A stretch of DNA of 64,000 nt from NCBI GenBank assembly GCA_001600815.1, contig BCKZ01000017.1:225720-289719 (forward strand). The letters run 5' to 3'. This document shows positions 8,921 to 25,720 of the stretch, piece by piece. The notes under the pieces are model-generated. The model worked only from the letters and a program-made list of their open reading frames with translations, searched no databases and was not told the DNA's origin. The translations under genes and the position numbers were made by a program. Source of the DNA: Alloascoidea hylecoeti (Eukaryota). Numbering within the stretch: position 1 is the first letter of the stretch; every line of letters starts with the position of its first letter.

Positions 8921-9209
8921 TGTAAGAATATAGCAGGCAGAAGAAACTGACTTTTGCCATGTTTATAATATAAATATTACCAATTACCAATGTGAAATAT
9001 AAAATAAATTACACCTTAAGCTTTCTAACCCATCTAGTAACCATATATGGTTATATGTAATTGAAGTGTAATTGTCAGGTTCTCAGGTATCAATTGTAAC
9101 TTAAAGTATAGCTACCCGGCTATGAAAGCCTATATAAATAGTAAGTAGTTTCCTCTTTTTATAAGATAAGTTATTTTCACTTCAGCTAAATTATCGCTAT
9201 ATCCTTACA
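8921..9209 (+). repeat. Long terminal repeat (289 bp)
   Basis: Begins TGTAAGAATATAGC and ends GCTATATCCTTACA (13/14 terminal inverted repeat, TG...CA). Internal TATATAAA at 9131. Directly followed by a TGG-initiated PBS-like sequence. Confidence 0.85.
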
Positions 9210-9222
9210 TGGGGGCCGAGCT
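9210..9222 (+). other. Primer-binding site, probably complementary to a tRNA-Pro 3' end
   Basis: TGGGGGCCGAGCT directly after the LTR-terminal CA. It is the reverse complement of AGCTCGGCCC-CCA, a tRNA-Pro-type acceptor end. Confidence 0.65.
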
Positions 9223-9259
9223 TATTATTGATCCTAATACTGCTACACAAAAGATAATT

Positions 9260-10486
9260 ATGACCACTAAACTATCTGCTACACAAAAAAACCTTCAGAA
9301 AGAGTATTTTACTCACTCTTCTACACTCGAAGGATGGTCATTATCCACGCCACTACAACAGCGTCCCAAATTATTGATGTCCATCAAGAAATTCATCTTA
9401 GAATTACCTCCGGACCCTGACTATTTCATTGCTGCTAGTGTCGTGTGTCATCAATGTGAAGAAGACAATGTTTTCACAGATTACACATTCATTAAAGATT
9501 CTATTAAATCAAGACAGGATTTCTTAGATTATTTCTTCTCCAAAGGAACGAAAGATACTGAACAAACTATCTTCCAAATGCAATTATTCAATCAATTGCT
9601 CAACACTAGATTTATTAAATCTATACAAGAATTTAGAACTTTGATCAACTGGTTGAAACGTTCTTTACCTGGTTTAAATTTGTTATCCAGAAGAGTAGTC
9701 TCTATGGCTCTTTTACAAAGCAAATGCTTTAAGAATTTAGAAAAGATCCATATGTTTCTACTTAGAGACATAACTGCTAATAAAACAATGGAATCCAATT
9801 CCGTTTCAAATCTCATCGTGGATATTTGCAGTTTACAACAAGAGGAATATCCGTTTTTACAGTCAAAATCCACAAAAAACTTAAAAGAAGACAAGAAACA
9901 ACCAAAAAACCCATCATCCAAATTAAATAGTAATAAAGATACTTCTGCCTACTATGTAACTTCCTCTGTAAAAGCAAATCCTCTTTTACCTATTGTTACT
10001 ATCAACATCGGTGGAATTCCAACAACAACGTTACTAGACACTGGAGCAGTTGCTTGCTTAATCAACAGCAATTTCGTGATGAAAAACAGGTTAAAATTCA
10101 GTCTCTCAAAATATCAAAAACAAATAACTATACAAGATATAAACCAAGGTTCTCGCACTTTTCCAAATAGGGTTACATGTCAACGCATTCACACGTATTC
10201 CCCTCATACTTTTCATTTAGTAGATAACCTACCTTATGATGCCATCATTGGTTACAACTTTATTTCTTTACATCCTGAAATTTGGAATCTCGTAAATAAT
10301 ACGAAAGCTAATCTAAATTCAAATTCCGATATTGTTAAGGTAAACAAAGTGACCATTACAACATCAACCGCTCCAATTCCCGAGAATGATGAAATTATTC
10401 AAGTTACTAAACCTAAGGTAAACTTAAAAGAGTACATTGAAAATCTTAAAATTCCCGACCTTATTATCGCTATATCCTTACAGTAA
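9260..10486 (+). CDS. Retrotransposon Gag-aspartic protease polyprotein, truncated before RT
   Basis: Uninterrupted ORF (an in-frame ATG also lies at 9209, on the LTR/PBS junction). Retropepsin motif LLDTGA at 10031-10048 and downstream YDAIIGYNFI; the upstream region is a plausible helical Gag. The ORF runs into the LTR-end fragment (IIAISLQ*). Confidence 0.8.
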   Translation: MTTKLSATQKNLQKEYFTHSSTLEGWSLSTPLQQRPKLLMSIKKFILELPPDPDYFIAASVVCHQCEEDNVFTDYTFIKDSIKSRQDFLDYFFSKGTKDTEQTIFQMQLFNQLLNTRFIKSIQEFRTLINWLKRSLPGLNLLSRRVVSMALLQSKCFKNLEKIHMFLLRDITANKTMESNSVSNLIVDICSLQQEEYPFLQSKSTKNLKEDKKQPKNPSSKLNSNKDTSAYYVTSSVKANPLLPIVTINIGGIPTTTLLDTGAVACLINSNFVMKNRLKFSLSKYQKQITIQDINQGSRTFPNRVTCQRIHTYSPHTFHLVDNLPYDAIIGYNFISLHPEIWNLVNNTKANLNSNSDIVKVNKVTITTSTAPIPENDEIIQVTKPKVNLKEYIENLKIPDLIIAISLQ

Positions 10487-13203: not shown

Positions 13204-14076
13204 TTAGACTTTGAAACCCTTTGAATTTCTGCGACCACGACCCTTTTCGAATTTACGTCCCTTGGACAAAATTCTTGGTGCCTTACGCTTATGAGGACCC
13301 ATACCAAAGTGTCTAACGGCTTCTCTGGAATTTCTTGGACCTCTAACAAGGAGAGTGTTTTGTCCCTTAGGGGCACGGATAGCAAGTTGATCCAAAGTAA
13401 GGATTTCACCACCAGCCTTTAAGATTCTAGCTCTGGCGGTTGCAGTAACTCTTAAAGCGGCAAGGGTAACCTTTGGTGTTTCCAAAAGACGGTTATCATC
13501 AGTGACTGTTCCAACAACAACAATAATCTTCTTAGATGCACCTTCTTGATTAAGAGCCTTGGCGACACGGGAAAGGGAAACTGGAGGACTGTTGGTTTTT
13601 GAGAGGAAAAGACTTTTCAAGACAACCTTGTTGAATGGGGCAGCATCAACACGACCTATTATTAAATGTCAGTATATTGTTTCAAAATGTGGATATTTCA
13701 ATGATGGTTGGTAATGATGATTGGTAAGTTTGCTAAGGATTAAAGAAATTTGTGTAAAATCTGTTCTAGATCATAATATTGTCGCAGTTTTAAAAGGATT
13801 TGACTTTACAAATTCAGATGGATTTTATCATAATCTCTCCATTCAAAACATTGGTAATTTTATTTTGTCGATAATTTATATTTTGAGTATAATCCAATCC
13901 TTCAATTCTAACTCAACTTCATCTATCATTTTTCATCATTAAATCTTCATATCATCAAACTTACGGGCCAAAAAGCTGTAGAGCTTAACCAAAAGCTTTA
14001 AGCTGACATCATCTGATTTTGGAGCAGTACGATTTCCACTCTTTACGTGGAGTTTTGAAAATGAATCTTTACCCAT
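13204..14076 (-). CDS. RPL18: 60S ribosomal protein L18 (eL18); exons 14076-13965, 13655-13204
   Basis: Spliced product [39 protein letters not shown]...GTVTDDNRL...[11 protein letters not shown]...[10 protein letters not shown]. Intron 13964-13656 is GTAAGT..TACTGAC..TAG. Confidence 0.97.
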
Positions 14077-14307
14077 TGTTGTTGATTGTAATGCTAAATT
14101 GTAAAGGCCAATTTTGAATCTTTGGTATGAAGAAAATTAGATACTTTAATTTCCCAATTAGGATGTATGTGTGACTGTCTTCTAAATTCAGTTTCAGCCC
14201 TATGGTACACCACGTGCTAAACACGTTTCTAAAATTACGTAACCATATCACCGAGAAAACTGAAAATATCAGGAGTAGATATATGACTACAATCACAAAA
14301 CAGAAAA

Positions 14308-15180
14308 ATGTCTAAACCTCAACCGTAGGTTGATTCTCTAAACCATTTCTTTTCAATTCTCTGTTCTAACGTGAATTTTCAATTTAATTCTAGTATTGTA
14401 AATCCAAGGGGTATACCACAAGCACCATTTGTTGAGAAAGTTGAAGATTTCATTAAGACAGCAGAAGATGTTGATCCGTTATTAAAACAGTTTAATGAAA
14501 TGTTACAGTACGTTGAAAATGCTTATTAAGTTTATTAATTATAATTGGTATTATACTGACCATTAATTAATAGGAAATACCGATTCATGGTAAGAAATGG
14601 GCTTTACTGTAGCTATAATTTAATTATGAACATTCAAAACTAAACTGATAATGATATAGGAGTCAAGTAAAACTACAAATTTGGCATCAGTCAAACAAAA
14701 AATCCCTGATATTAAAAAGACATTGGAAATGGTCACATTTCTTGATTCTAGAAAAGTATGAACTAGAGTTTTCATCAATCATTAACTTCTTATATAACTA
14801 ACATTTTTTAAAGGATTCTGATGAAAGTATTGAAACAAATTATGAATTAAATGATACATTATTTGCAAGGGCATCAATTACACCCTCTGATACAGTTTAT
14901 TTATGGCTCGGTGTAAGTTTTATATACTATTCTTGGATATTTAATAATACAAATTTTATTAACATTACAACTTTTTTAGGCAAATGTTATGCTTGAATAT
15001 CCAATAAGTGAAGCAATTGAATTATTAGAAGAAAAATTAAAATCTGCAAAAGAGTCATTAAAGGTCACAGAAGAGGATTTAGAATTTTTAAAAGAAAATA
15101 TAACTACTATGCAAGTTAATATTAATAGATTATATAATTGGGATGTTCAACGACGAAGAGATTTGAAAAATAAAAAATAA
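14308..15180 (+). CDS. PAC10: Prefoldin subunit 3; exons 14308-14324, 14394-14507, 14574-14589, 14660-14755, 14814-14912, 14980-15180
   Basis: Spliced product contains NPRGIPQAPFVE, KYRFME, KIPDIKKTLE, YELNDTLFA, VYLWLGANVMLEYP and NRLYNWDV, all prefoldin-3 motifs. Five GT-AG introns keep the frame. Confidence 0.95.
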
Positions 15181-15240
15181 GAATTGATATTCATTTCGAT
15201 ATAATATAGATACTTTATGATTATATTATACTATTAAATA

Positions 15241-15585
15241 TTGATTATATCTATTTCTTTGTTTTCTATTCATTAACAAAGGTAATAAAACCTTTTAAAT
15301 TCCCCATAGCTAATAAAGAATGAAAAGTATCATAACCTAATCCCAATTTACTTTCTTTATGATCAAGAACAGGTATCATTCCACAAGATTCGCATTAAAT
15401 TTGAATATTTATTGATAATAATACCATATTCAAACTCTATATTCTAAAGTTTCATTACACTAGATACTATCCTTTTTATTCATTTGTTTTCCAATATCAT
15501 CAATCCCTAAATTTTGATATCTATTTAAGTAGTTAAAAAGAAATCTGTTAATAATGAAATATCATCTTTTATTAAGGCATAACTA
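15241..15585 (-). pseudogene. Decayed duplicate of the 3' end of the VPS38/UVRAG-like gene (corresponds to ~17894-18279)
   Basis: Co-linear similarity to 17894-18279; 15546-15585 matches 18240-18279 at 39/40. Translation fragments SYALIKDDISLLT and CESCGMIPVLDHKESKLGLGYDTFHSLL are interrupted by frameshifts and stops. Confidence 0.9.
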
Positions 15586-16759
15586 AGCAATACCCCTCTC
15601 TTCACAAAACTGAACATTACCATAATACAATTATGGACTTCCAATCCGTTGTCAGACACTGCACAGCGAATTCCAGTCTCAGTTTATTTAACAAAATATT
15701 GTGCAACTCTTTGATATTTCATTGTCTGACACCAATTCACTATAGAGCAATATTTTTGGAGAAACATCTGTATAAAATCTTCTTTTCCTTTTCATATGTG
15801 GTATGAAGTCGACGAGTAGAGGTTAAAACATTATGTTCAACCACATATTCTAATTGCAAATTTGCAATACACTATTTTCAAGCTCAATTTCAATAATTTA
15901 CTCCGCTAATCAAATCTAAGGGATCTTGGCACAGCTTTGGAATATATCTGGCAAGTGAAACTCAAAACAACATATAAGTTGCTTTCGCCCAATAACTGTT
16001 GTTAACAGCCCCTACTGAATCAAGTATGCACATATAAATAATTGATCAGCTTGTAACTCAACTCTGTTACCGTCAAATAAATATCTAAATATTACAATTG
16101 ATCATCTTTACTATGTCACAAATGTGACATTCAGGTTTTATTTTCTTTCTTACTACATTTTTATGCCATACAATTTTAAATTTATTATTGCGACTATTCT
16201 TGCTCTTATCATAAGTAATGTTATGAAATACTTCTCCAATAATTGGTTCATCAACATCAGATAATCTTGTAGTGATATTATATTACACGTTTAAATACAC
16301 ATCAAGGGGACTCAACTCTCGCATTTCCATCATAGTTCTCGAAGATCCCTTAAAAACCATTCGAAGTAAAAATTAGACATCTAAGAGAGGGAAATCCCTG
16401 ATGACACAAACTTCTCCGTGGATAGTGATATTATTTGTAATACTTTATTTATGTTGGTTTTGTAATTCGAGGTTGCGACATAATTTTTGTTGCGGCATCC
16501 GAGAATGGTAACCCGAACTTTTAATTCCTTTTATTCCAAAAAACAAAAAAGATTTACCTATCCACAGAATAATTTGGAAGAAAAAATCCATTAAATCAAT
16601 GAGAATCTAGTTATAAACTGTAAGCTTATAAAGCTAGAACAATTCTAATATATAGATTAAAAGTTATAAATATGATACATTCTGTAATATTAGTTAAATT
16701 ATCAATAAAAAGTTGATTGACAATCGATATCACAAACAAAGTATATAATCAATTACAAA

Positions 16760-17800
16760 ATGGAATATAAAAATCTTGGAAATTCAGGTCTTAAGATCTC
16801 TAAAATTATTATGGGTTGTATGTCCTATAGTGAATCATCATGGTCTGATTGGATAATTGAAGATGAAGAAAAAGTATTTTCATTAATGAAGAAAGCTTAT
16901 GATGTTGGAATTAGAACATTTGATACTGCAGATACTTATAGTAATGGACAATCAGAAATTTTAATAGGAAAATTCCTAAAAAAATATTCAATTAAGAGAT
17001 CAAGTGTTGTTATTTTAACTAAATGTTTTAGTGTTTCTGATCCTATTGATAAACCACCTGCTACTGCTTTGATTGATCCAGCATATGGACCTGTTAATAC
17101 AAAACAGGAGTATATTAATCGAGTTGGATTATCAAGGAAGCATTTGATGGATGCAGTAGATGATTCTATTGAAAGACTTGGAACATATATTGATGTATAT
17201 CAAATTCATAGATTAGACCCTACAACACCAAAGTTAGAGATTATGTCAACTTTGAATGATATTGTCACATCAGGTAAAGTTCGTTACATTGGAGCTTCAA
17301 GTATGAGAGCCGTTGAATTTGCACAATTACAGTTCATAGCAGAGAATCATAACTTGACAAAATTCATTTCTATGCAAAATTTCTATAATTTATTATATAG
17401 AGAAGAAGAAAGAGAAATGATTCCATTTTGTAATGAAACTGGAGTTGGTATAATTCCTTGGTCACCACTTGCTAGAGGAATTTTAGCACGTCCTATTCAA
17501 GAAAAAGCAAGTTCTTTACGTGCTAAGACTGATTTTATCATTCAAGGATATTTGAAGAATAGTTCAGATTCATTAGATGAAATCCATAGAAGAGTTGAAA
17601 AGTTAGCTAAAGAAAAAGGAGTTTTAATGTCTCAAATTGCAATGGCTTATGTTATTTCTAAAGGAATGTGTCCGATTATTGGGTTTAGTAGTGAAAGAAG
17701 AATTGATGAGGCTATTAAAGGGCTTAAAGTGGTTCTTAGTACTGAAGATATCAAATATTTGGAAGAGCCATATACTCCTCAAACAGTAGTTGGATTCTAA
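16760..17800 (+). CDS. Aldo-keto reductase (aryl-alcohol dehydrogenase / YPL088W-like)
   Basis: LGNSGLKISKIIMGCMS, FDTADTYSNGQSE, LGTYIDVYQIHR, GKVRYIGASS, MQNFYNLLYREEEREM, PWSPLARG. Intronless. Confidence 0.95.
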   Translation: MEYKNLGNSGLKISKIIMGCMSYSESSWSDWIIEDEEKVFSLMKKAYDVGIRTFDTADTYSNGQSEILIGKFLKKYSIKRSSVVILTKCFSVSDPIDKPPATALIDPAYGPVNTKQEYINRVGLSRKHLMDAVDDSIERLGTYIDVYQIHRLDPTTPKLEIMSTLNDIVTSGKVRYIGASSMRAVEFAQLQFIAENHNLTKFISMQNFYNLLYREEEREMIPFCNETGVGIIPWSPLARGILARPIQEKASSLRAKTDFIIQGYLKNSSDSLDEIHRRVEKLAKEKGVLMSQIAMAYVISKGMCPIIGFSSERRIDEAIKGLKVVLSTEDIKYLEEPYTPQTVVGF

Positions 17801-17897
17801 TTTCTATTTATTAATTAAACTATATAAGGTTCTCTTAGAATCTTTATCTTAAGATATAAAAATATTATGCTACAATTTATTAATTATTAGTTATTAA

Positions 17898-19757
17898 TTA
17901 TGTTCTATCTCTTTTGTTCATTAAAAAAAGTAATAAACCTTTTAAATTCCCTAATAAAGTATGAACAGTATCATAACCTAATCCCATTCCACTTTCTTTA
18001 TGATCAAAAACAGGTATCATACCACAAGATTCACATAACATTTGAATATTAATTGATAATAATAAAACACCATATTCAAATCTATATTGTAAAGTTTCTT
18101 TACACCATAATGGGAAAATTCTATCCTTTTCATTTATTTTTTGTTTATTATCAATTCCTAAAATTTGATTTCTGTTTAATTGTAATTGAGAATTTGAAGA
18201 TTGTAATTTTGAGTTTAAATTTGTAATTGAATTTGAATTTGTTAATAATGAAATATCATCTTTTATTAGGGCATAACTACCTCTAACAGAAATTGGATAA
18301 CGTAATTGAATCCATAAATATTTTGATAATTGTAAAACTAATTGACATATAAAACTATAAATTGTACCAAGAATTTCTTCTTCTTCTTCATTTAATTGTT
18401 TTATAATTTTATTTGTTGTTGATTTAATAAATCTTAATGGAATTGATAAATTACAAATTGTAAATTGTGGACCAAAATCAATTGTTGATGTTGATGTTGA
18501 AATCGATTGTAATTGAGATTCAGTTGGTTGTAAAGGTTCAATTGGGAAAATAGAATCTAATTGTTTTGCAATTCTTGAATATTCAAGTTCTATGCACTCT
18601 TTAATATTCTTTAAAGCTTGATTTGGATTATTATTATTATGATTATTGTTTTCTTGATTTATTATAAATTCATTATCAATTTCTAAATTTAAATTAGATA
18701 AATTTGATAAATTTGATGATTTATTTAGATAAATTTCTTGCTTAAAATTAAAACTATCAATTTCAATTTGTTTTAATTTTTCTTTATAATGATTTTTATT
18801 AATTAATTCAATTCTTTTATTTTTTTCATCAATTAATTTTTTTAATTGTAAATTTTTTTTTAAAATTAAATTTTTAATTGTTAATAAATCATTTGAAAGT
18901 TGTGATTTATAATTATTAATTATAAAATAATTTAATGATTTATCTTCTTGTTGTGATTTAGTTTGAAAAGATGATAATGATAATGATAATGATAATGATG
19001 ATGATGATGATGATGATGATTTTGGAAGGTATAAAGATATTTGATATTTTGTTATATTAATTGTTTTAATTGTATCATGTAAAACAGATAAAATATTATT
19101 AAATTTTAATAATGAATTATAAGATATTGATTCAATTTTATTAATTTGTTGATTATTTTTATCTTTATATTTTGAAGTTTCTTTTTTCTTCTTTTTGTTA
19201 TCATTGCTATAAATTGGATTAAAAGTATGAAGATTTGGTGAAGAACTTGATCTTCTTAATTTCAACTCTGGACATAAATAACAACCATCTGATAAAATAA
19301 CAATTATTGAATTTGAAGAAACATTTGATATATCTTGTAATGAATGTGATAGATATGTTAAATTATTTAAAGAAATATCTAATTTTTTAAATAATGACCA
19401 ATTAGTTTGAATTGGTGAAACAGAAGACCAAACTCTTATTGTAAAAGAATTTAAATTTCTTGATTTTATTTCTGAAAAATCTACTTCGGAATATGCAGGA
19501 GATATAGAATCTGATATGACTTCACTTATATAAATAGGTTCGTTGTGAAGATGAGAATGAACGGAGATAAAAGTTGATAAAAATAGATTTGTTGATGAAG
19601 AAACGTTGATGATAGCAAAGCCTTTGATATGTCTTATTCTCCTTATATTTGGACGTATTATAGAACCTGTCTTGGATTGTGGGAGAACGGTGTTTGTGAT
19701 TGGTGGCGACCCAGGCGACCCAGGCGGCACTGGTGAGCCAGGCTCAGAGTGGAACAT
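17898..19757 (-). CDS. VPS38: Vps38/UVRAG-like subunit of PI3-kinase complex II
   Basis: C2-like N-terminus, central coiled coil and a BARA-like C-terminus (IFPIEP, LSKYLWIQLRYPI, IFPLW, RFEYGVLLLSINIQML). Confidence 0.75.
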   Translation of the reverse strand: MFHSEPGSPVPPGSPGSPPITNTVLPQSKTGSIIRPNIRRIRHIKGFAIINVSSSTNLFLSTFISVHSHLHNEPIYISEVISDSISPAYSEVDFSEIKSRNLNSFTIRVWSSVSPIQTNWSLFKKLDISLNNLTYLSHSLQDISNVSSNSIIVILSDGCYLCPELKLRRSSSSPNLHTFNPIYSNDNKKKKKETSKYKDKNNQQINKIESISYNSLLKFNNILSVLHDTIKTINITKYQISLYLPKSSSSSSSSLSLSLSLSSFQTKSQQEDKSLNYFIINNYKSQLSNDLLTIKNLILKKNLQLKKLIDEKNKRIELINKNHYKEKLKQIEIDSFNFKQEIYLNKSSNLSNLSNLNLEIDNEFIINQENNNHNNNNPNQALKNIKECIELEYSRIAKQLDSIFPIEPLQPTESQLQSISTSTSTIDFGPQFTICNLSIPLRFIKSTTNKIIKQLNEEEEEILGTIYSFICQLVLQLSKYLWIQLRYPISVRGSYALIKDDISLLTNSNSITNLNSKLQSSNSQLQLNRNQILGIDNKQKINEKDRIFPLWCKETLQYRFEYGVLLLSINIQMLCESCGMIPVFDHKESGMGLGYDTVHTLLGNLKGLLLFLMNKRDRT

Positions 19758-20033: not shown

Positions 20034-20771
20034 ATGAATATGGCATTTATCATTTGTCTCGCGCATTTTTGTGAACAACACGGACCAACTCCTATTCAAT
20101 GTATTCAAACGGTTCCTTTAGATTTTAAACTACATCCAGAACCACACCCCTCAAGAGATTCGTTATGTGCTTCATGTCGATTTATTCCAACAAATGAAGG
20201 AAATGGAGGAAGATTAGTAACAACAGATTCTAATTCAAAAATACGATTTGTTTCTTCTCAAAATCCTCCCAATCAATCCCGGTTTTCAGCAGTACGACAG
20301 GCATGCGTTCGCAGTTTGTCAGTTGAACATCAGGTTCCTTTGGCCCAACCTTTACTTTTTGGGGATCCAAGTATAGGATATACGCTTTCATTAACATTCA
20401 AATTAGCGGATAAAGCAGCAAGAGGTGGGGAAAGAACATATTCGATTCTCTGTATATCAGAAAGTGAATCACAATTAATACACAATTGGAACCGAATAGT
20501 TTCTAAATTTACAGCGTTAGTGAAATCATTAAAACAGTCATTGAATCTGAATTTGAATCTAAGTTCCAGTGGGAGTGGAAGTGGAAATGGAGCAAATCGA
20601 GGAATCGAAGAAAAAGATGATCTATTTCGACATGACACGTTTTTAAGGAAAAGAGATGTTATCTCAACTCCAAAGAGTTTAGTAACATTATTAGGAGATG
20701 ATAAAGTATTCATTAAAATTCATGCCTGGGGTGCTTATTTAATAAGAGAATTGGAGTTAAACGAAGGATAA
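20034..20771 (+). CDS. LST7: Folliculin-like protein Lst7
   Basis: LAHFCEQHGP, CASC, FVSSQ, VRQACVRSLSVE, LFGD and DKAARGGERTYS are folliculin N-terminal (longin) motifs. Confidence 0.9.
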   Translation: MNMAFIICLAHFCEQHGPTPIQCIQTVPLDFKLHPEPHPSRDSLCASCRFIPTNEGNGGRLVTTDSNSKIRFVSSQNPPNQSRFSAVRQACVRSLSVEHQVPLAQPLLFGDPSIGYTLSLTFKLADKAARGGERTYSILCISESESQLIHNWNRIVSKFTALVKSLKQSLNLNLNLSSSGSGSGNGANRGIEEKDDLFRHDTFLRKRDVISTPKSLVTLLGDDKVFIKIHAWGAYLIRELELNEG

Positions 20772-21373: not shown

Positions 21374-23092
21374 ATGGGCGCAAATCAAGCTTTGCCTGGC
21401 ATCGTGGAAGCAGAGAGCGAAGCAGATACAGAGCTAGACACAAACCAAAATGAACCTTCAAGTTCACTGAAAAGGAAAAAACAGGAGGATTTACTACACA
21501 TGTTTAGAGAAAGTGACAATGAGCAACAGGCAAACGAACTTGAAGCCATCGATCAAGAAATCCTTAATATCAACTCCATTATAAACGATAATGATAACAG
21601 GAGTATATCTACTGATAAACAATCCGAATATTTATACAACAATAATGCTTTAACGACAAATAGTGATTTAATCAACATCAATTCTGATTTAAATCCTGAT
21701 TCTTTTAGAAATCAAAATCAACATAATATTGATAGTGAAAATGAATATGGAAACGGAAAAAAGAACAAAAAAATGAGTTACAAATTAAATAATCATTTTT
21801 TAGACAATCATTCAACTGATTCATTGATTATATCTGATTCATTGATTATATCTGATCCTCCTCAATCTCATAGTAGCAATACATCCTATGAAGTTCCAAA
21901 AATAAAATCTCCTGTTGATCACAAATCTCCCATAATGAGTCCAATATTGAGTCCTATAATGAATCCTATAACTAATACCATTAATTCAACAGCTGCTACA
22001 ATTAATGATAACAATTCAATTACACCTTCTTCTGCTCCACAATGGCTTGTCCCTGATTTAGAAGAAGAATGGGTCTCAGATCATGAAACTAACCCACCTA
22101 AAATTTCAAATATTCCTGGTTTTGATATAAATGATGTTGACTCAACAGTAGCTTCAACTAAAGAATTATCAACATATGCTGAAATTGCATCAATTGCTCC
22201 AGATTCAACTATTAATAATGAACAAATTAAATCTTCAATTAATTTAGATGATTTTATAGAAAATGATGGAACTGTAATTCATAATTCAAATGATATTGTT
22301 AATACTGCATCTGTTGAATGGAAAAAAGCATTAAAAGAAAAAGAAAAGGAAAAAGAACACTCTTTTGGACCAATTTTTTCAAGAATGTTTGAATCACCAA
22401 CCGTTCAATCTTTAAAAAAAGTTTATGGTAATAGCAGTAATTTAAATAATAATAATACTAATGCAACAACTGATCTTTTAATGGATACCCAATTTTTTAA
22501 CCAACAAAAAGCAATTATTGAAAATGAAAATGAAAATGAAAATGAAAATGAAAATGAAAATGAAAATGAAAATGAAAATGAAAATGAAAATAATGGGAAT
22601 TTATCAGATGGATCTGAAAAACTTGAAACTGTTTCAATATCACCTTTTAAACTTTTCGCTGATGAATATAATACATATACTGAAAAAAGATTTAATGGTT
22701 TATTAGATCAAGTTGAAAGTGATAATGATGACAAACACAAACACAAAAACAAAAATAACAACAATCAAAATAATAATTATAATTCTGATTCAACTGATTC
22801 AACTGATAGTTTTATAAATTCAAATCAAAGTTATGATAGTATAATAGATCAAAAAAGTAATGTTACTGCTGATGAATTCATGCAAGAAGCAAATGATATT
22901 TTTGCAAAAATTAGTTCAAAAAAGCCAAAACCATATACAAATACAAATAATAATTATAATGGAGGTGGTACAACAACAAATGATGATAGTAATGATGAAT
23001 ATAGTAGATATTCTGGTTCATTTTCAAGTATTAATGATGATTTACAAAATTCAGATTTTTATAATGATGTTCAAATTCAACCATTACAAACA

Positions 23093-23139
<47 letters not shown>

Positions 23140-23950
23140 TAAAGTTATTTCAACTATTGATGAATTTAATGCAAATATTCATCGATTACCATATGAAAAT
23201 CAAAGTACTTTTAATTATAATAATAATCAAAAGAAAAACAAAAATTCTTATGCACCAAAAAACAATAACTTAAGAAATCAACATCATCATCATCATCATC
23301 ATCATCATAATAATAGTAATAGTAGTAATAACAGTAATGATAAAAATCAAATTCAAATGATAAAAGGTAAAACTTCAATTCCAAGATTAAAAAAATTATC
23401 TGATTTAAATTTAAAAACAAAATTAAATTCAAATTTAAATCAAAATTTAAATTTTAAACATCAACCACAAAACCATCAACAACATCAACATTTAAACGCC
23501 GAAATAAAACCACCATTTAATTTTAATCCAAGGATATATTCAAATACTTCAAGACCAAGTTTAAATTCAAAAGCAAGTAGTAAAGCAAGTAGTCATATAG
23601 GAATGGCAATTATTACACCTGATCAATTTAAATTACCTGTAAGAGTTGGAAATATGATATTTGATCCAAATTCTCGAATATGGAAAAAAGATGAAACTGA
23701 TTCAAATGATTCAAATTCAAATAGAGAATTATCTTTTGGAACTTTAGATGCAATTGAAGATTTATCAGTTAGAAGTAGAAAAAATAATTTAACTGATAAT
23801 GATACTGATGATGATGATAATGATGATGATGATAATAATAATAGTTTGTTAAAACATTCAAATCATCAACAGATTTTACAAAAAGTAAATGGAAATAAAA
23901 ATGGGAAACAATTAACTGGTATATTAAGGAATAAAAATAATAATAATATT

Positions 23951-23987
<37 letters not shown>

Positions 23988-25720
23988 TTAGATCAAAACA
24001 ATCACAATCACAAATGAAAAAATCAAATCGTCAAGCGCCTACACCACCATCTTCTTCAAATTACAATCACAATGGTATTGAAAGACGTGAAGTTTCATTT
24101 AATGTTACTAAAGATGACTCATATTATTTAAATGAAGGTGTTACAAATATTCAAGAAATATCATTATCATTTTCATTAAGTAAAAAAACATTAATTGAAT
24201 GTATTTCAAGTACAACAACAAATGATCAAAATAATTTATCAAGAGATTGGGATGATATAACTTCATTAGATTTATCTGAAAAACATTTATCGTCATTGAA
24301 AAGTTTAGATGAATTTTGTCCAAATATTATTAAATTAAATGTATCATCAAATGAATTAGGTTATTTAGATGGTATACCAAAAGATATATTGGAATTAAAT
24401 GCAAGTTCAAATAATTTAAATGGTTTAACTTCTTTTAATGATTTAAAATCTCTTCATAAACTTGATATATCAAATAATAATCTTGAAAGATTTCATAGTT
24501 TAAAAAATTTAAAAACTTTAACACATTTAAATGTTAATTTTAATAAGATTTATAATTTAACTGGTTTACAATTTTTCCCATGTTTAATTAAATTAGAATT
24601 AATTTCAAATGAATTATTTGGTGAAATTAATTTAAATGGAGTTGAATTATCAAATTTAGAATATCTTGATTTTTCATCAAATTCAATTAATTCTTTAATT
24701 GGTTTAGAAAATTTAAAAAATTTAAGAGTTTTAAATTTAAATAATAATGAATTAAATGAATTAAATTGTTTTAAAATTTTAAAAAATTTAAAAAAAATTT
24801 CATTAAAATCAAATAAATTAAAAAAAATTGATTTAAAACCATTTCCAAATTTAAGATATTTAAAAATTGATAATAATAAAAATTTAAATTTAATTAAAGG
24901 TTTAAAAAATTTAAAACATTTAGAAATAATTTCTTCAAAATATATTTATTCAATTCCAATAATTGATTCAATTTATTTAAATTGTATTGATGTTAATAAA
25001 ATTTATATTTCAAAATTATCAAATTTTTTATCATTTGATAGAATTTTTATGAATTTAGAAAAAATTGAATTAATTTCAATTGGTTTAAAAAATTTACCAA
25101 AAAATTTTAATTTAATATTTCCAAATTTAAGAGAATTAAATTTAAATTTTAATTTATTAAAAGATATTGATGAATTAAAAAATTTAAAAAAATTACAAAG
25201 ATTATATATTGTTGGTAATAATATTAAAAAATTTAGTTCAACTATTATTATTTTAAAATCATTATTAAATCTTAAAATTTTAGATTTAAGATTAAATTTC
25301 TTAAATAAAGGTTTTTATCCTTATGTTTTTAATCAATATGAAGGTGATTTAACTAATAAAGGTAGTACTGATGGAACAATATTAGACGTTGATGCTGAAT
25401 CTGGATTGATTCAATTAAATACACCAGAAGATATTGAAGATTTCTCATTACATTATAAATCAAAGCAAACAACTCATGGATTGAAAGAATGGGAAGTACG
25501 AGATTTAAGACATCTTGAAAAGTTAAGAGCTGTTTATGAACATGAATTGAATAAAGGAAGAGAAGGTAATTGTGAAACAACGTTTTATCAGAAAAGATTG
25601 GTATATCAGGCACTTATAGTGAAATCAAGTAAAAATCTAAAAATATTAGATTCTATTTATATTAGTAGAGATATTCGGGAAAGTTTAAAAGAAGTTAGTT
25701 ATGAAATTTTAAATAGCTAG
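21374..25720 (+). CDS. NUD1: Spindle-pole-body LRR scaffold, Nud1/Cdc11-like
   Basis: 1448 aa. Low-complexity N-terminus, GNMIFDPNSRIWKK motif and a long C-terminal leucine-rich repeat array (LDLSEKHL, LNVSSNEL, LDISNNNL...), the Nud1/Cdc11/centriolin architecture. Confidence 0.75.
22520..22591 (+). repeat. (GAAAAT)n coding microsatellite encoding poly-(Glu-Asn)
   Basis: About 12 perfect hexamer units. Further (AAT)n and (CAT)n runs lie near 23093-23139, 23282-23306 and 23936-23986. Confidence 0.95.

Follow-up and report, generated by a model that had tools for sequence, protein, structure and literature searches.

In this analysis, we asked how an intact aldo-keto reductase gene (AKR) came to lie between the convergent genes PAC10 and VPS38, with a 3' end of VPS38 on either side of it. 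The locus belongs to a 64-kb window, by which we mean the whole stretch of DNA that was analysed, from Alloascoidea hylecoeti (GCA_001600815.1, contig BCKZ01000017.1, positions 225,720-289,719, forward strand). The host is a budding yeast with an AT-rich genome. In window coordinates, the locus is made up as follows.

14980-15180, plus strand: last exon of PAC10/GIM2, prefoldin subunit 3; its stop ends at 15180 (PF02996, E 7.2e-12)
15181-15231, no strand: PAC10 3' flank, without a match to the B side
15232-15585, minus strand: copy A, a decayed VPS38 3' end and gene relic, aligned by blastn to 17878-18279; stops, frameshifts and motif loss
15586-16759, no strand: spacer of 1174 bp, the presumed AKR promoter region
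16760-17800, plus strand: AKR of the AAD/LPG20 type, aryl-alcohol-dehydrogenase-like, intact, 346 codons (PF00248, E 1.3e-64)
17801-17877, no strand: AKR 3' flank, without a match to the A side, abutting a (TTATTAA)n run
17878-18279, minus strand: copy B, the working VPS38 3' end plus 20 bp of flank in common with A; stop at 17898-17900
18178-18237, minus strand: 21-nt tandem repeat, 3.0 copies, inside B; codes for an N/S/Q-rich loop and is mostly absent from A
17898-19757, minus strand: VPS38/UVRAG-like gene, intact ORF of 619 codons
20034-20771, plus strand: LST7/folliculin-like gene (PF11704, E 4e-44), divergent neighbour of VPS38, given for context only

Copies A and B are direct repeats, both of the VPS38 3' end, that align at 79.2% identity over 313 columns (self-blastn, E 4.75e-71). 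At the inner edge, 15542-15585 and 18236-18279 agree in 42 of 44 columns (95.5%, self-blastn), and gap-free blocks of 114 and 57 nt are 90% and 86% identical, respectively. Copy B, at 402 bp, is the longer of the two since the 21-nt tandem repeat is mostly missing from A, and the homology extends beyond the stop codons by 13 bp in A and 20 bp in B. The VPS38 end has only these two copies within the window, where no additional copy was found; among the window's 10 direct-repeat families of at least 60 nt, the A/B pair is the sole two-copy family above 72% identity. The duplication is not an assembly artefact, since contigs from two runs on other samples in other studies (X3 and X4) bridge both sides, matching 13500-16786 and 17653-18963 without a single mismatch or gap. 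The structure is identical in both runs, with no polymorphism among what are only three samples in total, the assembly included. The original prediction had placed VPS38, AKR with its upstream DNA, a decayed VPS38 end and PAC10 in that order, and these structural statements all hold; its count of 39 identical bases in 40 (15546-15585 against 18240-18279) is exact by sequence. It had run copy A from 15241 to 15585, of which the inner end is correct, whereas the homology passes the stop codon and starts near 15232.

The PAC10 exon matches human prefoldin subunit 3 (7wu7 chain 3, E 1.3e-15). The 619-codon ORF is, as judged from its sequence, a UVRAG/Vps38 homologue with predicted N-terminal C2-like and C-terminal BARA2-like regions; residues 6-163, 464-503 and 539-577 of the query match human UVRAG (7bl1, E 1.6e-14). 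The query itself contains no Pfam family, and its three distant matches carry PF10186 and PF17649. At E <= 0.001 it retrieved 232 library proteins, itself included (best other E 1.3e-23), and no close relative was present in the collections searched, the best homologue being about 36% identical. In the flanks of distant VPS38 loci, up to 10 kb per side, AKR, PAC10 or LST7 was found in 0 of 80 cases.

The AKR product covers profile positions 1-288 of 291 of PF00248, a predicted full-length (beta/alpha)8 domain, and matches an aryl-alcohol-dehydrogenase-like protein in the PDB (7utf, E 2.8e-39). Its best outside match over the full length is 65% identical, and its best fragment 73%. A foreign origin had been suggested for this gene; this is not borne out, given that its relatives are yeast AAD/LPG20-type reductases and that its GC3 of 0.16 lies within the range of the window's genes (0.075-0.44). 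Between 15586 and 17877, AKR is the sole ORF of at least 60 aa, and a search of this interval for a nuclease, a recombinase, a tRNA and terminal repeats found none of them. The spacer has a GC content of 0.305 (intergenic range in the window, 0.22-0.38); in 10 of its stop-free stretches, of 43-76 aa, no Pfam family reached the cut-off (best E 0.031, below gathering), and it contains no tRNA and only a sub-threshold snR69-like match. The earlier remark that the cassette carries no endonuclease or recombinase is thus confirmed for its ORFs and for these 10 stretches of the spacer.

Copy A has no function as a coding sequence, and its divergence shows a neutral pattern. It contains stops in all three frames, and its homology to B changes frame several times; the two copies are separated by indels of 1, 5, 6 and 9 nt, and by longer ones, and in B's frame A has two stops that arose by substitution (TGG to TAG and TTA to TAA). 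Across 97 gap-free codons, 30 differ, 7 of them synonymously, 21 non-synonymously and 2 as stops. Simulated at random, mutation of B would yield 4.7-5.8 synonymous changes (probability of at least 7, 0.18-0.37) and 1.8-2.2 stops. Differences fall 14/7/13 over the codon positions (chi-square p = 0.28). The dN/dS between the two ends, an estimate that the original prediction had called for, is 0.69 from 29 substitutions, close to the neutral divergence that the same prediction had set against itself. Pairwise omega values up to 0.3 are rejected (p = 0.03), an omega of 0.4 is not (p = 0.13), and a modest period of coding divergence may be compatible with the observed ratio. It had been argued from five synonymous codon pairs that both ends diverged while coding. 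All five pairs are present, as is AAC/AAT, twice, but neither this synonymous count, set against its chance expectation, nor the dN/dS, nor the spread over codon positions sustains the argument.

A and B differ in five conserved columns (R546, F548, P549, L550 and L574), defined as those in which 100 or more homologues align and at least 75% of them share one residue; B keeps the consensus in 5 of 5 and A in none, and A has lost the conserved R-x-F-P-L motif. At column 584, with 20 homologues, the commonest residue is matched by A and not by B. Copy A is a gene relic in the usual sense, being homologous to a functional gene, truncated, and disabled by stops and frameshifts. As in the yeast gene relics described previously (PMC2876123), a truncated copy with in-frame stops and frameshifts accompanies an intact gene in the same genome, and the truncation is at the DNA level, without retro features. 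Compared with the relics presented in that account, this one differs in being a direct repeat of a live gene's own 3' end, 2.3 kb away, that brackets an intact unrelated gene, and it thereby records the rearrangement that placed AKR. The dead copy is also a small fossil, in that the 21-nt repeat, which encodes a loop of the Vps38 C-terminal domain, either grew in the live gene or shrank in the relic after the event.

The two outer flanks of the duplication bear on which junctions are new. The stop of PAC10 and A's counterpart of the VPS38 stop (15245-15247) are 64 bp apart, the stops of AKR and VPS38 are 97 bp apart, and another convergent pair, TBCD/methyltransferase (38815/38894), has 78 bp between its stops, which makes only three convergent spacings from one window. 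On the basis of these spacings, and of homology that ends 13-20 bp past the stops, each of the two flanks, on the A side and on the B side, resembles a native junction of convergent genes. It follows that the only clearly illegitimate junction is 15585/15586, which joins the middle of a coding sequence to DNA 1.17 kb upstream of AKR. This architecture fits an integration in which the incoming DNA brings the gene a new end and pushes the old one aside. Of the integration with gene-end replacement that had been proposed, the layout therefore stands, and coding divergence, a foreign donor and mobility are not supported.

Our best explanation, which we put forward tentatively, is that an old, single repair or recombination event placed the AKR segment and a second VPS38 end between copy A and the gene. 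Copy A would be the original 3' end of VPS38, in its old place beside the convergent PAC10 stop. Between it and the rest of VPS38, a 2.3-kb segment consisting of 1.17 kb of upstream DNA and AKR would have been inserted, the same event giving VPS38 a repeat of its final ~350-400 bp, such that the gene would now terminate in copy B, beside the AKR 3' flank. The most likely route would be one homologous exchange in the 3' part of VPS38 and one illegitimate join, at 15585/15586, either through Campbell-type integration of a circle or through one-ended strand invasion that was completed by end joining. In the donor, AKR would already have lain tail-to-tail with a VPS38 3' end, and this end would have come from VPS38 itself or from an allele very close to it, not from a diverged foreign gene. 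Copy A would have decayed neutrally thereafter, and the segment would have had no means of moving itself. We infer that A is the original end, that one event was responsible, and the route that it took; the (TTATTAA)n run at the right insert/B junction would suit a template switch at microhomology equally well, in which case there would be two illegitimate junctions. A crossover within the 40-bp block of near identity had been proposed. Two differences in 44 bases are not unusual at ~11% divergence, and the proposal lacks support because one crossover that joins diverged sequences would not on its own generate a block of identity.

In yeast, laboratory integrative plasmids that enter by a single crossover ("pop-in") yield their homology as direct repeats flanking the insert. 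The locus resembles Campbell-type integration in that the shared homology is duplicated directly on both sides of the insert, with native-like flanks outside. Unlike in an established circle integration, no circle or ARS is known here, nor any donor in which AKR adjoins a VPS38 end. A natural gene-carrying circle has been described for the Z. bailii region B, found in wine yeasts, which as eccDNA reintegrates in chromosomes (PMC3053389). As presented in that report, region B differs from our locus in that it joins non-homologously, with 2-3 bases of microhomology, and does not duplicate a gene end (PMC3053389).

An alternative that deserves weight, although we consider it unlikely, is that the 2.3-kb segment came from elsewhere, by copying or by transfer, and that its insertion also duplicated ~350-400 bp of the target, the VPS38 end. 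Either an MMBIR/FoSTeS template switch would have returned ~350 bp behind its departure point, or staggered breaks would have been filled in. In that case the insert would have an illegitimate junction at each edge, and B would have been newly copied from A. This predicts exactly the order A, insert, B; it accommodates the neutral divergence, and it puts the right junction in the (TTATTAA)n run at 17877-17901, a plausible site of microhomology. Human insertions of the MMBIR/FoSTeS type provide a precedent, in which an inserted segment has its receiving site duplicated on both sides and microhomology at the joints (PMC5120786). The cases in that source, however, involve tens to hundreds of kb and retain the donor copy (PMC5120786), whereas here no donor copy was found, the best AKR relative being only the 65% full-length or 73% fragment match. 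Chance must also have set the end of the duplication no more than 20 bp from the VPS38 stop and that of the insert just 77 bp beyond the stop of AKR, an objection that selection for intact genes weakens.

It is less probable still that AKR is ancestral, in the order PAC10, spacer, AKR, VPS38, and that A is a local duplicate of the VPS38 end set down 2.3 kb away beside PAC10, either through template switching over a short range or as what a deletion left of a tandem duplication. Such a history dispenses with foreign or ectopic DNA, and it agrees with the neutral A/B divergence, with the ordinary composition of AKR, and with the lack of a close paralogue, as for a long-resident gene. Against this, it asks for two coincidences: that the copied piece ended 13-20 bp past the VPS38 stop, and that it came to lie convergent with PAC10, with 51 bp between it and the PAC10 stop, mimicking a native junction. 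The tandem-duplication route requires in addition a second, nearly exact deletion.

The original prediction had compared the locus with WHO homing elements, which sit at FBA1 in Torulaspora and Lachancea and whose units encode a LAGLIDADG/zinc-finger endonuclease, form clusters that are polymorphic and reach 9 genes, and occupy an essential gene at a cleavage site that diversifies (PMC7282813; bioRxiv 10.64898/2026.08.13.744650). In these accounts, the new 3' part keeps the host gene working, and the old end of ~400 bp is pushed downstream and decays; likewise, copy B is in frame with VPS38 and the decayed copy A lies beyond AKR. We regard it as a long shot that the locus is the eroded remnant of a gene-end-replacement cassette in the nucleus that had no enzyme, in which AKR travelled with a spare VPS38 3' end and entered by recombination there. 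If this were true, it would be the counterpart of WHO elements minus the nuclease, and the neutral-looking divergence would mean only that the donor was closely related. A relic or non-autonomous selfish cassette of the WHO kind, bringing a diverged VPS38 end with AKR as cargo, would account for the working end, the cargo and the displaced dead end as the WHO integration model does (PMC7282813; bioRxiv 10.64898/2026.08.13.744650), but is highly improbable. Unlike at WHO loci, no endonuclease or recombinase, nor a relic of one, was found in the 10 stop-free stretches searched; only one displaced end is present, and no cluster; a metabolic gene is the sole content; and the junction block, near-identical at 39 of 40 bases, has not been recoded as a target site. 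Synonymous differences are not in excess, two other samples have the identical structure, and VPS38 is fast-evolving, unlike the conserved, essential FBA1. The likeness to WHO elements thus does not extend to nuclease, cluster or target site.

That copy A arose when LINE machinery turned VPS38 mRNA into a processed (retro) pseudogene truncated at its 5' end is already disfavoured and scarcely credible. The sharp inner edge at 15585 does resemble 5' truncation, and A includes the 3' end of the CDS with a short flank, but 15181-15231 has no poly(A) trace or A/T run, and there is no short target duplication. It would also take a large coincidence for a retrocopy to insert just 2.3 kb from its parent gene, pointing the same way and about as far from PAC10 as a native neighbour.

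Altogether, the locus looks like a gene relic of an ordinary kind, left by a rearrangement that happened once, and not like a mobile element. If isolates had other cargo or empty sites at this junction, it would mean homology-guided cassette traffic at eukaryotic nuclear gene ends; nothing found here points toward such traffic. The locus instead illustrates neatly, from nature, how a compact yeast genome accepts a gene between two tail-to-tail genes with neither of them harmed, in that the shared 3' region is duplicated, and one copy is in use while the other decays.

The 3' end of the VPS38-like (UVRAG-like) gene is present twice in the window. Self-blastn aligned 15232-15528 with 17878-18179 at 79.2% identity over 313 columns (E 4.75e-71) and 15542-15585 with 18236-18279 at 95.5% over 44 columns, confirming the duplicated gene end of the original prediction; the longest ungapped blocks reach 114 nt at 90% identity. 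Across the whole window, which holds 10 direct-repeat families of at least 60 nt, this is the sole two-copy family above 72% identity. The copies, here called A and B, flank an aldo-keto reductase gene (AKR).

Features of the locus, in window coordinates
up to 15180 (stop end), plus strand: last exon of PAC10 (also GIM2), the prefoldin subunit 3 gene (PF02996, E 7.2e-12; 7wu7 chain 3, E 1.3e-15)
15232-15585, minus strand: copy A, decayed VPS38 3' end
15586-16759: spacer of 1174 bp between copy A and AKR
16760-17800, plus strand: AKR, intact, 346 codons (PF00248, E 1.3e-64, full-length)
17801-17897: intergenic, 97 bp from AKR stop to VPS38 stop
17898-19757, minus strand: VPS38-like gene, intact, 619 codons; its last ~380 bp with 20 bp of flank form copy B (17878-18279)
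20034-20771, plus strand: folliculin/LST7-like gene, given for context

The inner edge of the repeat is sharp (15585 in copy A, 18279 in copy B); past it there is just TGT...AGAGG with two gaps, a likeness that cannot be told apart from chance. At the outer edge, homology runs past the homologous stop codons by 13 bp in A and 20 bp in B. Copy A is broken in every frame and, read in the frame of B, is interrupted by two substitution stops and several frameshifting indels. Copy B is ~43 bases longer, and the extra bases coincide with a tandem repeat at 18178-18237 (unit of 21 nt, 3.0 copies) that encodes an N/S/Q-rich loop in the conserved C-terminal part of the VPS38-like product. This loop separates the motifs IKDDIS and R-x-FPLW, which adjoin each other in human UVRAG, and the shorter copy A indicates that, after the duplication, the loop either expanded in the living gene or contracted in the relic.

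Pfam assigns no family to the product of the 619-codon gene. Human UVRAG (7bl1, E 1.6e-14) matches it in an N-terminal C2-like part and in the C-terminal part, and PF10186 and PF17649 are present in its distant matches; on these grounds the label "VPS38-like" is fair. The AKR falls within an aryl-alcohol-dehydrogenase-like group of yeasts, members of which some sources name AAD16 or LPG20, and its closest solved structure is 7utf (E 2.8e-39). On the PAC10 side, the gene (14329-15180) seemingly consists of several short exons, with pieces placed by eye at about 14389-14508, 14660-14758, 14812-14910 and 14980-15180 and putative introns that, also by eye, start GTA-type; this would be a high intron count for so small a gene in a budding yeast. 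Composition is very uneven between adjacent genes, GC3 being as low as 0.094 in VPS38 (17898-19757) and 0.088 in the gene at 21374-25720, beside genes that reach 0.2-0.44. Long stretches rich in N, S and D occur in both low-GC3 genes, such as (GAT)17 at 18970-19020.

We asked how the two ends diverged by aligning copy A to copy B and reading it in the frame of B. Differences were found in 30 of 97 gap-free codons (31 nucleotide positions), comprising 7 synonymous changes, 21 non-synonymous changes and 2 stops. Over all aligned positions, 14, 7 and 13 differences fall at codon positions 1, 2 and 3, respectively (chi-square p = 0.28), and the Nei-Gojobori dN/dS is 0.69. When 31 sites of copy B were mutated at random, with four mutation spectra, 4.7-5.8 synonymous codon changes (P of at least 7 = 0.18-0.37) and 1.8-2.2 stops resulted. 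Pairwise omega values of 0.2 (p = 0.0015) and 0.3 (p = 0.03) are rejected; 0.4 is not (p = 0.13). If one copy had been unconstrained since duplication, the expected pairwise omega would be (1 + omega)/2, that is, at least 0.5, and the observed 0.69 fits such a history.

The differences were also polarised by aligning the C-terminal region to library homologues, 147 of 149 of which match the region, with at most 134 residues per column. The copies differ at five columns that are filled in 100 or more homologues and in which a single residue accounts for at least 75% (R546, F548, P549, L550 and L574). Copy B has the consensus residue at all five; copy A has instead a serine, a 9-nt deletion over three columns, and a stop. 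Column 584, with thin coverage (20 homologues), has its commonest residue in A and not in B. Polarisation at the conserved columns thus agrees with a copy A that, to judge by its sequence, has been unconstrained. Given the simulation and the polarisation, the seven synonymous pairs are at chance level, and the idea that both ends diverged while coding, for which those pairs had been cited, does not hold. The pattern largely matches an outcome that had been named in advance as counting against the integration of a diverged end: neutral divergence of two ends most closely related to each other, in a comparison of these two ends alone.

Nothing mobile or foreign was found in the AKR-bearing segment (15586-17877). 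Only AKR was recognised within it, and none of the 10 spacer stretches tested reaches a Pfam family cut-off, in keeping with the earlier observation that the cassette lacks an endonuclease or recombinase; the spacer has 15 stop-free stretches of at least 35 aa, the longest of 76 aa. Among the repeats listed, no terminal repeat, inverted or direct, lies at the segment's edges, nor do transposon or LTR ends, and no tRNA was found in the whole window. A match to the Rfam C/D-box snoRNA snR69 (15765-15861, minus strand) covers the full model length but scores 27.3 bits where the gathering score is 50; with this sub-threshold score and its consensus AUGAUGA and CUGA motifs unmatched, it is probably chance or debris. 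Elsewhere in the window, a 425-aa ORF (9209-10486) has a retroviral-type aspartyl protease domain (PF00077, E 2.2e-5) and, by its size and single domain, is probably a cellular DDI1 homologue and not a retroelement. The GC3 of AKR (0.16) lies inside the range of the window's other genes (0.075-0.44), and the GC of the spacer (0.305) inside that of its intergenic stretches (0.22-0.38). Compared with the genes and intergenic stretches of the window, neither shows compositional foreignness, and the proposed foreign origin of the cassette loses its support. The best full-length AKR match has 65% identity, and the top fragments have 70% (covering 44% of the query) and 73% (covering 37%); because its closest library relatives are just 65-73% identical, AKR is no recent copy of any paralogue that survives and has been sampled.

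The structure is reproduced outside the window's assembly. Five of the 10 sequencing runs listed contain the stretch or part of it, and four were aligned at 80% likeness. Two of these come from two other studies, a wood-decay metagenome (X3) and a second sample labelled organism A (X4), and their contigs span 13500-16786 and 17653-18963 with zero differing letters and zero gaps. The insert is thus bridged on either side by independent contigs, and no structural variant was seen in these contigs over the aligned pieces. The other two runs are uninformative on relatives: one (X5) gave short pieces only, some identical, at low depth, and one from another organism (X9) gave low-complexity matches only. 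None of the 15 contig joints listed (at least 16 exist) connects the two copies; 16094>18821 and 16154>18846 are regarded as spurious joints, their shorter side being just 20 letters in AT-rich sequence. Over 15606-16073, X4 gave the bridging contig alone, which is weak evidence for the absence of a second spacer copy. In this organism's own runs, contig depth summed over AKR (16776-17711) is ~10x that of the flanks. Numerous contigs in X4 are 84-90% alike to AKR over its conserved parts, which makes AKR a member of a sizeable multi-copy paralogue family, and the ~10x depth reflects these many paralogues without showing a close donor.

Searches for the locus in other genomes reached distant relatives. 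A protein search with VPS38 gave 3 distant word-sharing matches only, and the best homologue among 1.84 billion representatives had an E-value of 1.3e-23 at ~36% identity, the nearest named homologues being from Pachysolen, Kuraishia and Arthrobotrys. A metagenome scan with LST7 confirmed 0 of 282 pattern matches; one with a 38-sequence VPS38 alignment confirmed 245 of 434 stretches, of which 80 loci were kept. AKR, LST7 or PAC10 lay beside the distant VPS38 in none of the 80 (tblastn, E <= 1e-4, flanks of up to 10 kb per side), whose flanks held just 5 chance-level matches below E 1. Gene order around VPS38 is not conserved at this distance.

How, then, did the locus arise? Copy A and PAC10 are convergent, with 64 bp between the PAC10 stop and the homologous stop of copy A; in the window's two other convergent pairs the gap is 97 bp for AKR and VPS38, and 78 bp for a TBCD-like and a methyltransferase gene. 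By this spacing, copy A occupies the site expected of the VPS38 end had PAC10 and VPS38 been direct convergent neighbours. The AKR/copy B side looks like an ordinary convergent junction, and 15585|15586 alone joins unrelated DNA: here the middle of a CDS meets sequence from 1.17 kb upstream of AKR. In the simplest account, quite possibly correct if short of probable, one homologous exchange and one illegitimate join (15585|15586) would have placed the AKR segment. This may have occurred through Campbell-type integration of a circle. Alternatively, a single end may have invaded a donor and been extended by copying across the gene end, on into AKR and past it, with end joining as the last step. 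Replacement of the gene end on integration, as originally proposed, is thus consistent with the structure; support for a diverged, foreign or mobile cassette fails.

The main rival, which we consider rather unlikely, is a replicative or staggered-break insertion that duplicated its target. Target duplication at the receiving site is documented in the available text of PMC5120786, and the right junction lies within a (TTATTAA)n run, yet such an insertion would be without a donor copy. That AKR is ancestral at the site and the gene end was copied locally later is less probable still, as two positional coincidences would then be needed: a copied piece ending 13-20 bp past the VPS38 stop, and its landing 51 bp from the PAC10 stop in convergent orientation. 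A selfish cassette is very improbable and a retro-pseudogene origin of copy A scarcely credible, each lacking its defining parts.

The footprint left by the favoured exchange and join, a working new 3' part with the old end displaced and decaying, is the same as that of WHO elements as described in the available parts of PMC7282813, where the old end is ~400 bp, and likewise of the preprint bioRxiv 10.64898/2026.08.13.744650. Unlike WHO elements, the VPS38 locus has no endonuclease and no recoded target. Clustering and polymorphism, together the last of the four WHO features compared, were not seen in the three samples available. Gene-bearing circles reintegrate naturally in wine yeasts, according to the text available of PMC3053389 by non-homologous joining, in contrast to the homologous exchange proposed here. 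The locus is better classed with the duplicated, non-processed pseudogene fragments, or "gene relics", surveyed in yeasts (PMC2876123, consulted in excerpt) than with WHO elements. Most likely it is the scar of a rearrangement that happened once and left a gene relic decaying neutrally.
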